Assembly (NCBI GenBank): GCA_965243395.1 | Contig: CBDEUS010000001.1 | Span: 736,001 to 800,000 of the forward strand | Length of the DNA: 64,000 nucleotides | Reading direction: 5' to 3' | Origin: Gammaproteobacteria bacterium | GTDB taxonomy: Bacteria; Pseudomonadota; Gammaproteobacteria; UBA4575 | Shown here: in pieces, positions 12,214 to 57,503 of the stretch | Layout of the letters: every line of letters starts with the position of its first letter | Position numbering within the stretch: the first letter of the stretch is position 1 | Program-made: the position numbers and the translations under genes | Notes under the pieces: model-generated | What the model was told of the DNA's origin: nothing | Seen by the model: only the letters and a program-made list of their open reading frames with translations | The model's database searches: none

Positions 12214-13314
12214 TTAATTTGGTTGATGTTGTTTTTCTAAATATTCGTGTGACTGCATTTCAGTGAGACGACTTGTAGTGCGCTCAAATTCTTCTTTTAA
12301 ACGTGTACCAGCATATAGTTTATCGGGTGTAGCTTCTGCTGACAAAATAAGTTTTACATTTCGGTCGTAGAATTCATCTATCATAGTAATAAACCTTCTT
12401 GCTTGATCATCTTTTGCATTAAAGATTGGCACATGCGAGAGTAAAACTGTATTAAATTCCCTCGCTATTGCAATATAGTCAGAGGCACTTCTGGGCCCGT
12501 CGCATAATTCTTTAAAATCAAACCAAGCAATCCCGTCTGCATGACGTATAGACTGTATTTCGCGGTTGTTTATTTTCAGCTTTTCCCATGATTCATTGCT
12601 ACGCTCAGTAGCAAGGTTTAAGAAGCTGTGTTCTAACCAATCATGTGAGTCCACATCAATTGGAGAATTATACAAGTCATTTTTTTGTAAAAATTCAAAT
12701 CGATGATCAATTTCTCCGTCGAGATGAATGATTTTAGTATGTTGTTGTAATAATTCGATGGTCGGCAAAAAACGCTCTCGTTGAAGGCCATCTTTGTAAA
12801 GCAGACTAGGCTCTACATTTGATGTTGCTATCAAAGCGACATTATTTTCGAATAAACCTTCAAGTAAGCCTGCAAGAATCATGGCGTCACCAATATCGTT
12901 TACAAAAAATTCGTCAAAGCAAAGTACCTTAGCTTTATCAGAAAATTCTTTTGCAACAAGCTTAAGTGGATCGGGTTGATCGCGATAATTTTTAAGCATT
13001 ATATGGGCTTGATCCATAAAGCGATGAAAGTGTAAGCGAAGTTTGTCCTGAAAATGTAGATTGGAAAAAAACAAATCCATCAGAAAAGTTTTACCGCGGC
13101 CGACGCCACCCCATATATAAAGCCCTTGGATACTACGTGTATTCGAATTTCGAGACAAAAATGTCGTAAACCGATCAATGATGGTCGAATCTTCAGGATT
13201 TTCAGAGCTAAGCTCATCATGCAGCGCCTGTAATGCTTGAACCACTTTTTTTTGGTTGGGGTCCTCGACTAGCTCATTTCCATCCAGTAGAGCTTGGTAA
13301 ACTGATTCAATCAT
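12214..13314 (-). CDS. zapE: AFG1/ZapE-family ATPase
   Basis: GLYIWGGVGRGKTFLMD, CFDEFFV.DIGDAM, RFITMIDEFYD. Confidence 0.95.
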   Translation of the reverse strand: MIESVYQALLDGNELVEDPNQKKVVQALQALHDELSSENPEDSTIIDRFTTFLSRNSNTRSIQGLYIWGGVGRGKTFLMDLFFSNLHFQDKLRLHFHRFMDQAHIMLKNYRDQPDPLKLVAKEFSDKAKVLCFDEFFVNDIGDAMILAGLLEGLFENNVALIATSNVEPSLLYKDGLQRERFLPTIELLQQHTKIIHLDGEIDHRFEFLQKNDLYNSPIDVDSHDWLEHSFLNLATERSNESWEKLKINNREIQSIRHADGIAWFDFKELCDGPRSASDYIAIAREFNTVLLSHVPIFNAKDDQARRFITMIDEFYDRNVKLILSAEATPDKLYAGTRLKEEFERTTSRLTEMQSHEYLEKQHQPN

Positions 13315-13579
13315 TATTATTCTTATGTACGCTCAGTTTTTAAAATGAGCGGTAAAACTCAATTAACCAGTATAAATATAAATCCTGTCCATAGGATGAA
13401 ATTGCAGAATAATTCCATCTATATTGACCAAATATCAATCAATTGGATATTTGGCTAATTTAAAAAATATAGATTAATCAGAGTACTTGGCAAATATTGG
13501 TATAACAAATTGTCACAAAAGTGCCAAAAATTGTCGTAATTTATAGGGTTATTTGCGCAAAATATAGCTCGAATATCGT

Positions 13580-13592
13580 TAAGTCCTTGATA
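13580..13592 (-). promoter_or_regulatory. IHF binding site
   Basis: Minus strand TATCAAGGACTTA is an exact match to WATCAANNNNTTR, about 20 bp upstream of a -24/-12 promoter. Confidence 0.7.
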
Positions 13593-13611: not shown

Positions 13612-13627
13612 TGGCATCAATTATGCT
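13612..13627 (+). promoter_or_regulatory. sigma54 (-24/-12) promoter
   Basis: TGGCATCAATTATGCT: GG at 13613-14 and GC at 13625-26 have the invariant spacing; predicted start about 13638. Confidence 0.7.
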
Positions 13628-13637
13628 TACTATATCT

Positions 13638-13736
13638 ATGAGCCTCTCAACATGATGCAAATATCCTCTATTTGAACATGTTGTTATTCTCGACTCCTCC
13701 TGGATTCGGCCGCCCTATATTGGCGGCCTTTTTTTT
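13638..13736 (+). ncRNA. candidate sigma54-dependent small RNA with anti-SD motifs
   Basis: Promoter, then hairpin CAACATG/CATGTTG plus CAAATA/TATTTG with loop TCCTC, then single-stranded CTCCTCC, then GC-rich terminator; no ORF. Confidence 0.65.
13708..13736 (+). terminator. intrinsic terminator with no upstream + strand CDS
   Basis: GGCCGCC-CTATATT-GGCGGCC-TTTTTTTT. Confidence 0.9.
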
Positions 13737-13806
13737 GCCTCATAAACTATATCTCTAGTAGCGCTAAGGGCTTCTCCTAGGTTCGGCTTTAGCGAATAAT
13801 TGCATA

Positions 13807-14868
13807 ATGTCTTTGGGTCCTCTCATGGTTGATCTTAGTGCAGATACTGTCTGTGCTAAGGAACGAGAATTGCTTTTATCACCACATGTGGGTGGTGTAA
13901 TTTTATTTAGCCGAAATTTTTCCACTATCGAAAAACTCACTGCATTAATCGAAGAGATTCATGAAATTCGACATCCACGTCTCCTAGTTGCTATTGACCA
14001 AGAAGGTGGGCGTGTGCAACGTTTGCGCGAAGGCTTCACACAATTGCCAGCAGTGAGATTATTAGGTGAGATTTATAATGATGAACCTACTCGTGCGGTT
14101 GAACTTGCGACTATAACTGGCTGGTTAATGGCTTCTGAATTAAGAGCTATTGGTATCGATTTTAGTTTCACTCCAATTTTAGATTTGGATCATGGCATAA
14201 GCCAGGTTATTGGTGATCGTGCATTTCATAAAGACCCTGAAGTAGTTTCTATAATCGCAGCTAAATATGTTCATGGTATGCGCAAAGCTGGCATGCAGGC
14301 CGTTGGCAAACATTTTCCCGGTCATGGTGCCGTAGTTGCAGATTCACATATTGATTTGCCCACAGATGATAGAGACTTTCAAGATATCTCTTTGCAAGAT
14401 TTAGTTCCTTTCCAACGCATGATAGATAATGGTATAGCCGGTATTATGAGTGCGCACGTTGTCTATGAAAAAATAGATTCTGAAATTGCGACGTTTTCTA
14501 AATTATGGTTACAAGAAGTGTTGAGAAAACAAATGGAATTTAAAGGTGTGATATTCAGCGATGACTTAAGTATGAAAGCCGCTCATTGCAATGAAGAAGA
14601 TAGTGAAGATTACTTATTACGTACACAAAGAGCTTTAGATGCTGGTTGTGATATGGTTTTGATTTGCAACTCTAGTGATAATGCATGCATGGTAGCAGAT
14701 CAATTGAATAACTATAACAATCCTGCTTCGCAAATGCGTTTAACACGCATGCATGGTGGGAAAGACCCAGTTTCATATGAAAATTTACGAAACTCTAAAG
14801 CCTGGCAAGCAGCTGTCAAAAAAATTGAATCTTATCAAGATTCACCTTATGGTGAACTAACACTGTAA
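13807..14868 (+). CDS. nagZ: beta-N-acetylhexosaminidase
   Basis: IDQEGGRVQR, KHFPGHG...ADSH, IFSDDLSM. Confidence 0.96.
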   Translation: MSLGPLMVDLSADTVCAKERELLLSPHVGGVILFSRNFSTIEKLTALIEEIHEIRHPRLLVAIDQEGGRVQRLREGFTQLPAVRLLGEIYNDEPTRAVELATITGWLMASELRAIGIDFSFTPILDLDHGISQVIGDRAFHKDPEVVSIIAAKYVHGMRKAGMQAVGKHFPGHGAVVADSHIDLPTDDRDFQDISLQDLVPFQRMIDNGIAGIMSAHVVYEKIDSEIATFSKLWLQEVLRKQMEFKGVIFSDDLSMKAAHCNEEDSEDYLLRTQRALDAGCDMVLICNSSDNACMVADQLNNYNNPASQMRLTRMHGGKDPVSYENLRNSKAWQAAVKKIESYQDSPYGELTL

Positions 14869-54849: not shown

Positions 54850-55374
54850 TTATTCGCCAGAGGTTAGGGCAGCACCAACTTTACCAGAGATCATTCCGAG
54901 AATTGCACCAACTACAAGTGATACAACAACAATAATTAACGGATTTGTTAGGCTTGCGGAAGTTAGTGATCCCATTGTGAGTGCATCGGGTGTTTGTAAT
55001 GAATAACCCGCGACACTAGCATATCCCAAAACTGAAGCCGGAATTGAAGAGAAGATTTCGATATGTGCCAATAAACACATTATCAAAACAGTTACGCCTA
55101 CAACAATTCCCGCCCAAATTGGTAAGGAAAGAGTATTTGCTAATGGAATGCCTAGGATTATTAATAATGCAATCCAGGCAATTACTGCACCAAGAACGCT
55201 GCAGACAATAGTATTTTGTAATGCTTTACCGTCACCACCAATTGCAAAAAAGCATGCCCATGCGATAAACACGACCCAAATTAATACAATTCCTGACAGT
55301 GGACCAAGACATAATGCAGCGGCGATACCGCCTAAAACACCTATGCTCACTGATAATGCAACAAGACTTTTCAT
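54850..55374 (-). CDS. DUF1097 membrane protein
   Basis: WVVFIAWACFFAIGG, IPASVLGYAS; strong SD GGGAGGAG. Confidence 0.85.
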   Translation of the reverse strand: MKSLVALSVSIGVLGGIAAALCLGPLSGIVLIWVVFIAWACFFAIGGDGKALQNTIVCSVLGAVIAWIALLIILGIPLANTLSLPIWAGIVVGVTVLIMCLLAHIEIFSSIPASVLGYASVAGYSLQTPDALTMGSLTSASLTNPLIIVVVSLVVGAILGMISGKVGAALTSGE

Positions 55375-57412: not shown

Positions 57413-57503
57413 TATCTGGCAATCCCGCTGTCTTAGAATTCTTGCTTCCTTAGACCGGTAATTTTGCGCCCCTAGTTTTCACTAGGTTTGCCTTTTTCAG
57501 TAA
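57413..57503 (-). ncRNA. c-di-GMP-I (GEMM-I) riboswitch aptamer
   Basis: Minus strand CTGAAAAAGGCAAACCTAGT-GAAA-ACTAGGGGCGCAAAATTACCGGTCTAAG...AAGACAGCGGGATTGCCAG: GGCAAACC, GNRA-capped P2, GCGCAAA, CCGG.CTAA receptor, GCGGG.TTGCC; P1 CTG/CAG; G at the Vc2 G20 position. Confidence 0.92.

Follow-up and report, generated by a model that had tools for sequence, protein, structure and literature searches.

Sigma-54-Dependent and Anti-Shine-Dalgarno Small RNAs

The sigma-54-dependent small RNAs (sRNAs) described in bacteria are few, including Qrr, GlmY/Z, NrsZ, and CrcZ, and each has shown how a two-component signal is relayed to translation. A candidate addition to this group lies between zapE and nagZ in a 64,000-nucleotide stretch of DNA (hereafter the window) from an uncultured gammaproteobacterium, whose genome is designated G000. 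A first-pass annotation of the window had proposed at this place an sRNA that is transcribed from a sigma-54 promoter and displays anti-Shine-Dalgarno (anti-SD) motifs. Comparison with 55 other genomes of the same family, which constitutes the whole order in the set searched, suggests with a probability of roughly 0.6 that positions 13638-13736 of the window (plus strand) form the gene for a sigma-54-driven, trans-acting anti-SD regulatory sRNA.

The Qrr sRNAs of Vibrio, which depend on sigma-54 and LuxO, are Hfq-type RNAs of ~100 nt with a -24/-12 promoter, activator sites upstream in the form of 13-15 bp dyads, and an invariant single-stranded seed, and they occur in multiple copies in some genomes. 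The window sRNA is like Qrr in its size, Hfq-type character, -24/-12 promoter, upstream dyads, invariant seed, and presence in several copies in some genomes, but the sequence of the seed differs. The Rfam Qrr model gives no match at the sRNA even at E<=10. In addition, none of the seven PF00158 proteins of G000 is a LuxO equivalog, as the LuxO model scores them at 230-373 bits (best 372.9) against a cut-off of 800.

A second point of comparison is the Betaproteobacteria toxic small RNA family (RF02278) of Burkholderia cenocepacia, comprising ncS03/05/27/62, which has in common with the window sRNA the layout of a short RNA bearing CUCCUCC, then GGAUUC, then a GC-rich terminator. To our knowledge, a sigma-54 promoter is not among the described features of this family. 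The likeness is limited to the 3′ 45 nt and the host lineages differ. RF02278 also has an internal hairpin of 17 nt, which follows the CU motif, precedes the terminator, and is closed by UCC...GGA; in the window sRNA 1 nt stands in its place. RF02278 members are described as toxic when cloned in E. coli, with their native function in Burkholderia unknown (PMC4603805). In a permissive Rfam search of the sRNA locus, which returned 13 matches at E<=10, RF02278 was the best match at 29.4 bits against a gathering score of 50, covering only 13691-13735, followed by suhB/MmgR (RF00519) at 20.6 bits against a gathering score of 41.

Repeated display of anti-SD motifs is a trait of NfeR1, an alpha-proteobacterial sRNA with the anti-SD motif CCUCCUCCC, which reportedly presents these motifs in a loop and in a single-stranded stretch. 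Among the sequence types of the window sRNA, referred to here as A to D, a similar display is found in type A, which has UCCUC and CUCCUCC, and in type C, which has CUCCUCC twice. However, NfeR1 is unrelated in sequence and lineage and has another type of promoter. NrsZ of Pseudomonas and GlnZ of enterics are named as RpoN-dependent sRNAs (PMC9731577). Along with MmgR of Sinorhizobium, they have sigma-54/NtrC-linked non-coding regulation in common with the window sRNA, and MmgR, to whose model the window sRNA aligns weakly with the score given above, carries CUCCUCCC-type motifs. Yet NrsZ, a processed repeat RNA, is encoded downstream of ntrBC, and GlnZ derives from a 3′ untranslated region, both unlike the window sRNA, upstream of which no NtrC boxes are found.

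At gathering thresholds, the only Rfam match in the whole window is a c-di-GMP-I riboswitch, with none at the sRNA, and types B, C, and D have no match in Rfam at E<=0.1 except for a likeness limited to the terminator. Because all Rfam scores are below threshold, the sRNA lies outside every described Rfam family, and the first-pass annotation, which had not recognised it as a named family, was right in this respect. Judged from sequence, the sRNA appears to be a genuine new family within a well-known class of bacterial regulators. The riboswitch aptamer occupies positions 57415-57502 of the window on the minus strand, with a score of 83.3 bits (gathering score, 35).

Promoter, Structure, and Conservation of the Small RNA

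The -24/-12 element proposed for the sRNA, TGGCATCAATTATGCT, lies at 13612-13627 (plus strand) with GG at 13613-13614 and GC at 13625-13626, and predicts a start at ~13638. The yardstick for this element is the sigma-54 consensus, TGGCAC-N5-TTGCW. In total, 51 distinct sequence contexts were examined for the promoter, 45 of them being full-length members of the family, and all 45 keep TGG-N9-TGC at consensus spacing, as the initial description of the promoter and its start would lead one to expect. The TGG lies 27-28 nt ahead of a conserved GAGC in 43 of these members and 25 and 34 nt ahead in the other two, while the GG and GC are fixed and the letters of the spacer vary freely. Both the GC-richer metagenome variants and divergent members from small genomes retain the promoter. 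The six contexts without it are five truncated extra copies and one unrelated locus; therefore, conservation of the sRNA begins at the start that the promoter predicts. The gene for sigma-54, rpoN, is present in G000 (229 bits) and nearly throughout the family (40 of 41 genomes), even in genera that lack the sRNA. In G000 a sigma-54 site is also seen at the start of rpoN itself (C2:914022). On this comparative evidence, the sRNA appears to be a genuine sigma-54-dependent gene.

Upstream of the promoter, an IHF-like site, TAAGTCCTTGATA, is found at 13580-13592 (about -58 to -46), where types A, B, and C all retain TAAnnnnTTGAT/CTGAA; a TAAnnnnTTGAT-type block at about -50 fits the IHF consensus. 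Further upstream, at 13510-13536 (about -128 to -102), an enhancer-like block, TTGTCACAAAAGTGCCAAAAATTGTCG, consists of the dyad TGCCA-N5-TGTCG and a TTGTCAC half-site. A dyad block at about -90 to -125 is conserved in the family, and the TTGTCACAAAAGTGCCAAAAATTGTCG block itself, of which G000 has a single copy, is conserved in type A genomes.

The predicted RNA is ~99 nt long, with its start placed by the promoter and its end by the U-tract of the terminator. A nearly invariant 5′ end, GAGCCUCUC, at 13640-13648 begins 0-3 nt past the predicted start in most members. This is followed by a 5′ hairpin (13648-13683), which has outer arms CAACAUG (13648-13654) and CAUGUUG (13677-13683), inner arms CAAAUA (13658-13663) and UAUUUG (13669-13674), and the loop UCCUC (13664-13668). 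The 24-nt seed region, UUAUUCUCGACUCCUCCUGGAUUC, extends over 13684-13707 with the anti-SD core CUCCUCC at 13694-13700, and is invariant or nearly so in the 34 sequences aligned. A Rho-independent terminator closes the unit at 13708-13736, with seven G-C pairs (GGCCGCC/GGCGGCC, 13708-13728), a 7-nt loop, and U8 encoded by T8 at 13729-13736. All of these elements are on the plus strand, and the 7-bp all-GC terminator with U8 and both pairs of hairpin arms stand as first drawn. No conserved open reading frame (ORF) exists in the sRNA, since the AUG at 13678 opens 27 codons in type A and meets a stop after nine in type B; comparative evidence is thus in agreement with the original view of an ORF-less transcription unit in the zapE-nagZ gap.

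The predicted fold of the 109-nt stretch has an energy of -32.4 kcal/mol (z = -5.3), equalled by none of 200 shuffles. Over 39 sequences the terminator is 97.1% paired, with changes on both sides in five of eight pairs, and the whole structure exceeds all 500 shuffles, in cells paired and in covariation score, as well as all slid registers. The 5′ hairpin is predicted in all 34 distinct 5′ parts and is kept across the family. Its outer stem is either CAACAUG/CAUGUUG or a compensated version such as CAGCA/UGCUG, CAGCAUGGC/GCCAUGUUG, or AAAAAGCAUG/CAUGUUUUUU, whereas the apical stem is rebuilt from differing sequence in types A, B, C, and D and is also remodelled in divergent members. The exposed UCCUC loop emphasised in the first-pass annotation is present in type A, but type C has GACUCCUCC in its place, with CUCCUCC replacing UCCUC, and type B has no CU motif there. 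Because the loop motif differs or is absent among the types, the second anti-SD site is lineage-specific. By contrast, the constant part of the seed is UUAUUCUCGACUCCUCCUGG, and CUCCUCCUG occurs in every copy, including the most divergent members; in types A to D, the core-flanking UUAUUCUCGA and UGG vary no more than the core does.

In G000 the sRNA is present in a single copy. Of 36 genomes in the same family, 24 give a BLASTN match to the stretch, as against none of 24 genomes that each belong to a different family elsewhere in the class. A covariance model (R1), built from 34 sequences, scores the sRNA of G000 itself at 112.3 bits (C1:749640-749736, or window 13640-13736) and detects it in 35 of the 55 other family/order genomes and in 7 of 11 genera, so the anticipated conservation across relatives was found by both methods. 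By genus, the model detects the sRNA in g1 (14/14), g9 (2/2), g2, g6, g8, and g11 (1/1 each), and g7 (15/16), with no detection in g3 (0/13), g4 (0/1), g5 (0/3), and g10 (0/2). Among the reference genomes searched, the sRNA family is confined to one order/family of uncultured Gammaproteobacteria. An exact 23-mer of the sRNA occurs in 28 species-representative contigs, all from metagenome-assembled genomes labelled Gammaproteobacteria, Thiotrichales, or Pseudomonadota. The full locus is also contained in four long, DNA-like contigs (X1-X4), all of a single sample, from which the window itself may derive. In a 16-mer scan of metagenomes, 14 of the first 100 loci are family members and most loci are chance matches; loci L168-L187 were screened by regular expressions alone. 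The metagenomes contribute the GC-richer variants, namely type C (L084 and L150; 48-49% GC) and type D (L118 and L153; 57-61% GC).

Conservation of the locus extends to considerable distances, as the order zapE-RNA-nagZ persists at identities of 49-52% for ZapE and 52-57% for NagZ, and the sRNA is 72-77% identical in genomes with ZapE only ~50% identical. In the alignment of 34 sequences, 45 of 100 columns are invariant and a further 20 are nearly so. Since the whole unit is conserved across genera, its features represent more than chance. Comparison of these sequences establishes the predicted gene, its promoter, its structure, and the conservation of its seed. One further model hit, in G012 (L221, G012:C8:85303-85391; 36.9 bits), was set aside as probably unrelated, being located at the 3′ end of an ORF with no sigma-54 promoter. 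This hit is composed of ACUCCUGAAUUGG and a terminator.

Relation to nagZ and Accessory Gene Insertions

The sRNA is located in the 492-bp gap between two divergent genes. On its upstream side lies zapE (12214-13314, minus strand), which encodes an AFG1-like ATPase (Pfam PF03969 at 1.2e-119) and whose synteny is conserved. On its downstream side, in the same orientation as the sRNA, lies nagZ (13807-14868, plus strand), which encodes a GH3 enzyme (Pfam PF00933 at 7.6e-81) and keeps its synteny in types A, B, and C; a gene for an MscS-type channel comes after nagZ. The locus has no plus-strand gene upstream, which agrees with the earlier remark that no such gene would need the terminator.

Several aspects of this arrangement speak against an independent sRNA. 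In types A and B the sRNA is directly upstream of nagZ and co-oriented with it, the same layout recurs in type C contigs with NagZ only 52-57% identical, and no sigma-70-like promoter is called at 13737-13806, between the terminator and nagZ. The unit could then be a sigma-54-driven leader or attenuator of nagZ (and mscS), in which regulated read-through would set nagZ expression and the terminated RNA of 100 nt would arise either as a by-product or as a leader fragment that has taken on another role. This explanation is quite improbable. No antiterminator pairing is seen that could replace the GC stem (7-8 bp, with U8), conservation does not continue past the U-tract, and the invariant CU-rich stretch has no complement in the start region of nagZ. 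Moreover, in G001, G028, and G022 the sigma-54 copy and nagZ lie 2.5-8 kb apart, with unrelated accessory genes in between, and type D contigs have no nagZ within the contig stretch examined.

The insertions are found at L223 (G001:C1:983800-988900), L323 (G028:C9:462500-472300), and L324 (G022:C1:846000-852000). Genes carried there encode a ThsB-like TIR protein, a DUF3455 protein, an AbiEii-like nucleotidyltransferase, a TetR regulator, cytochrome P460, a hemerythrin-like protein, an IS3-type transposase, and ORFs of unknown type. In G001 and G028, partial 3′ copies of the sRNA flank the inserted blocks; these copies have neither the sigma-54 promoter nor the 5′ end but retain hairpin pairing, seed, and terminator. 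These partial copies may be differently regulated paralogues, duplicated remnants of an insertion site, or both, and from its sequence the locus looks like an insertion hot spot at which the 3′ half of the sRNA is duplicated.

The partial copies flanking inserted blocks would also be expected if the conserved block were chiefly a hot spot at which small accessory islands attach or recombine, with the RNA-like features secondary. However, G000 and most other genomes have one copy and no insertion, and an attachment site leaves the fixed promoter distance, the covariation of the stems, and the conserved 5′ end unexplained. No tyrosine integrase is seen in the accessory blocks of G001, G028, and G022, and beside the copies there is no integrase, the only gene of a related kind being the IS3-type transposase in G028. 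Such a primary role is highly improbable, while a hot spot is compatible with an sRNA gene that doubles as an insertion site.

Candidate Activators of the Small RNA Promoter

Transcription by sigma-54 requires an activator to be assigned to the upstream dyads, and six of the seven PF00158 proteins of G000 are canonical activators. The set consists of NtrC, a flagellar pair, two PAS-domain proteins, PilR, and an NtrX-like protein in which no GAFTGA is seen. The NtrX-like regulator is uninformative as a candidate because its orthologues are also present in genera without the sRNA.

Two kinds of evidence point to PilR, the response regulator encoded in the pilS-pilR-pilA cluster of G000. First, in each of the 12 genomes inspected, the pilA gene beside pilSR has a -24/-12-like site with TGACA-N5-TGTCA further upstream, and in a hand alignment the block upstream of the G000 sRNA, TTGTCAC-AAAAG-TGCCA-AAAAT-TGTCG, equals the pilA block at 21 of 28 positions. 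The relaxed dyad TGNCAA-N3-TTGNC[AG] occurs seven times in G000, and only at pilA and the sRNA is it within 300 bp of a -24/-12 site. A dyad with up to two mismatches is found at -89 to -123 in 32 of 45 upstream regions, compared with ~0.05 for single-sequence shuffles, although these regions come from related sequences and the counts are not independent. Second, PilR orthologues (at least 66% identity) are present in 25 of 35 sRNA carriers, with one more partial (G019), and in none of 20 non-carriers.

Other observations count against PilR. Nine carriers of the sRNA (G008 and eight g7 genomes) have no PilR orthologue, and in two of them, G027 and G020, each 100% complete by markers, NtrC is the sole canonical activator. 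The dyads of type B, TGGCA-N5-TGCCA, also differ from the pilA dyad. G027 and G020 retain both the sRNA and its promoter, and their PF00158 matches are NtrC and an NtrX-like protein without a visible GAFTGA, which would suit NtrC as the activator in place of PilR; the NtrC proteins of G000, G027, and G020 all score above the NCBIfam equivalog cut-off. Yet the glnA promoters of G000, G027, G034, and G036 bear canonical GCAC-N7-GTGC boxes, and no such boxes, as seen at glnA of the same lineages, are found upstream of the sRNA, where the conserved dyads are unlike NtrC boxes in spacing and sequence. NtrC is also present in genera without the sRNA.

The dyad and phyletic evidence for PilR has thus to be weighed against the carriers without PilR and the missing NtrC boxes, and on this basis PilR is the best single candidate for activator of the sRNA in G000, at somewhat less than an even chance. 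NtrC in its stead is rather unlikely, and the remaining likelihood, which is still considerable, belongs to an activator other than these two or to one that changes between lineages. In a literature search on PilR, PilS, sRNA, and regulon, no PilR-dependent sRNA is described in the titles and abstract openings retrieved.

Two further sigma-54-type loci of G000 deserve mention in their own right. The pilA promoter (C2:987921-988232, corresponding to L225 1922-2233; L311-L322) has an unusual conserved -12 region, TGGCAYGATATCTGTA/CTGAA, rather than TTGC, and the highly conserved pilA leader of ~200 nt includes a GGAGUCGUUAAAGACUUC hairpin. Outside the window, at C2:355675-356200 (L224), a second -24/-12 site, TGGCACAACGCTTGCT, is oriented divergently to glnA with its NtrC boxes. 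Downstream of this site come a membrane-like ORF of 46 codons and then ~350 nt of non-coding sequence with a terminator at its end, just before glyQ; the whole may be an NtrC-dependent unit for a small protein or RNA.

Proposed Mechanism and Targets

It is proposed that PilR, as the best candidate, with NtrC as the fallback, acts from the upstream dyads at 13510-13536 on the sigma-54 promoter at 13612-13627, the spacer between them probably being bent by IHF at 13580-13592. Transcription would yield a trans-acting RNA of ~99 nt comprising the conserved 5′ end, the hairpin, UUAUUCUCGACUCCUCCUGG, and the Hfq-type terminator. The CUCCUCC core and its flanks would then pair with extended Shine-Dalgarno (SD) regions of the GGAGGAG type, and this pairing would keep ribosomes from binding to certain mRNAs, limited in number, with Hfq assisting. 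From the comparative evidence we infer transcription, the identity of the activator, dependence on Hfq, the mechanism of repression, and the targets; repression through anti-SD pairing is plausible by analogy with described sRNAs. G000 encodes Hfq (PF17209, 102.4 bits; C2:1052405-1052590) and also CsrA, while ProQ was not found in this genome. The covariation within the terminator lends support to the earlier designation of the terminator as Hfq-type.

GGAGGAG is rare in G000, with 121 sites on both strands; at 28 of these, an ORF of at least 50 codons could start 2-12 nt downstream. By eye, many of the plausible true starts in this group give the impression of encoding signal-peptide-like N-termini, among them two Peripla_BP_6 binding proteins, the dihaem cytochrome c at C1:941295, and the DUF1097 protein of the window. 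The last of these had been named as a possible target from the start, and the SD match does exist, as ACGGGAGGAGCUAAUCAUG precedes the 174-residue membrane ORF at 54850-55374 on the minus strand. The two Peripla_BP_6-type genes, which are on different contigs (C1:591754 and C2:1005172), encode proteins that agree in all of the first 30 residues, and their start regions (GGAGGAGTACACATG) are almost the same.

Set against the proposed pairing is, first, the predicted accessibility of the seed. The CU-rich stretch described as single-stranded in the first-pass annotation is present and conserved, but in silico it is only partly unpaired, with a mean P(unpaired) of 0.58 for CUCCUCC in the ensemble compared with 1.00 for the UCCUC loop. 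In addition, exact-complement and extended scans yielded no target site whose conservation goes further than that of a generic strong SD, and a 16-nt complement with up to two mismatches matches essentially only the sRNA gene itself in 56 genomes. The invariance of ~25 nt could instead reflect binding of a protein. Within G000, exact-complement and duplex-energy scans are noisy, and several of their top matches are internal false starts.

Individual candidates did not hold up. The best extended match, GGGGAGUCGAGUAAU upstream of mnmG, occurs in no genome other than G000 and the one closest to it, and is positioned ahead of the likely true start, which adds to the points just listed. The gene after nagZ matches the complement at 14 of 16 positions in G008 but not in G000, and GGAGUCG in the type A pilA leader is absent in type B. 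As a side observation, mnmG is preceded in several genera of the family, the GC-richer g3 among them, by a conserved element that contains CAGTACAAT (L251-L280).

The failure to find a longer conserved target, together with an invariant core that is a plain anti-SD heptamer, would be in keeping with a general competitor or decoy. Such an RNA would mimic the 16S anti-SD sequence and damp all strong-SD mRNAs, as proposed for "toxic small RNAs," or would titrate a protein such as Hfq. The sub-threshold likeness to RF02278 over CUCCUCC...GGAUUC and the terminator points in the same direction, as does the toxicity of RF02278 members cloned in E. coli (PMC4603805). However, the flanks are as invariant as the core in all four types, and a pure SD mimic would not need such flanks, which makes a decoy of this kind improbable. 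A related variant in which the RNA is a sponge for CsrA is unlikely because it would require GGA repeats, and at most one GGA is present, with one in type A and none in type B. The preferred reading is still that of an sRNA acting in trans on a limited set of strong-SD mRNAs.

Implications for the Family

The sRNA family is defined purely by comparison within an uncultured lineage, and its enhancer-IHF-promoter layout is complete and its seed invariant. The covariance model is ready to be used for annotation.

A wider scenario, with the odds clearly on the other side, would have phosphorylated PilR activate pilA through sigma-54 and at the same time fire the anti-SD sRNA, so that translation of a strong-SD set of envelope and periplasmic proteins is shut down. 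Where pilSR was lost, the sRNA would have been rewired to a different input, and the 3′ half of the sRNA would serve as a landing site for accessory or defence islets. Should the link to PilR fail, the sRNA would be an ordinary addition to the list of anti-SD sRNAs. Should it be true, the sRNA would be the first under the control of PilR, and in these bacteria the sensing of pili would be tied to post-transcriptional control.

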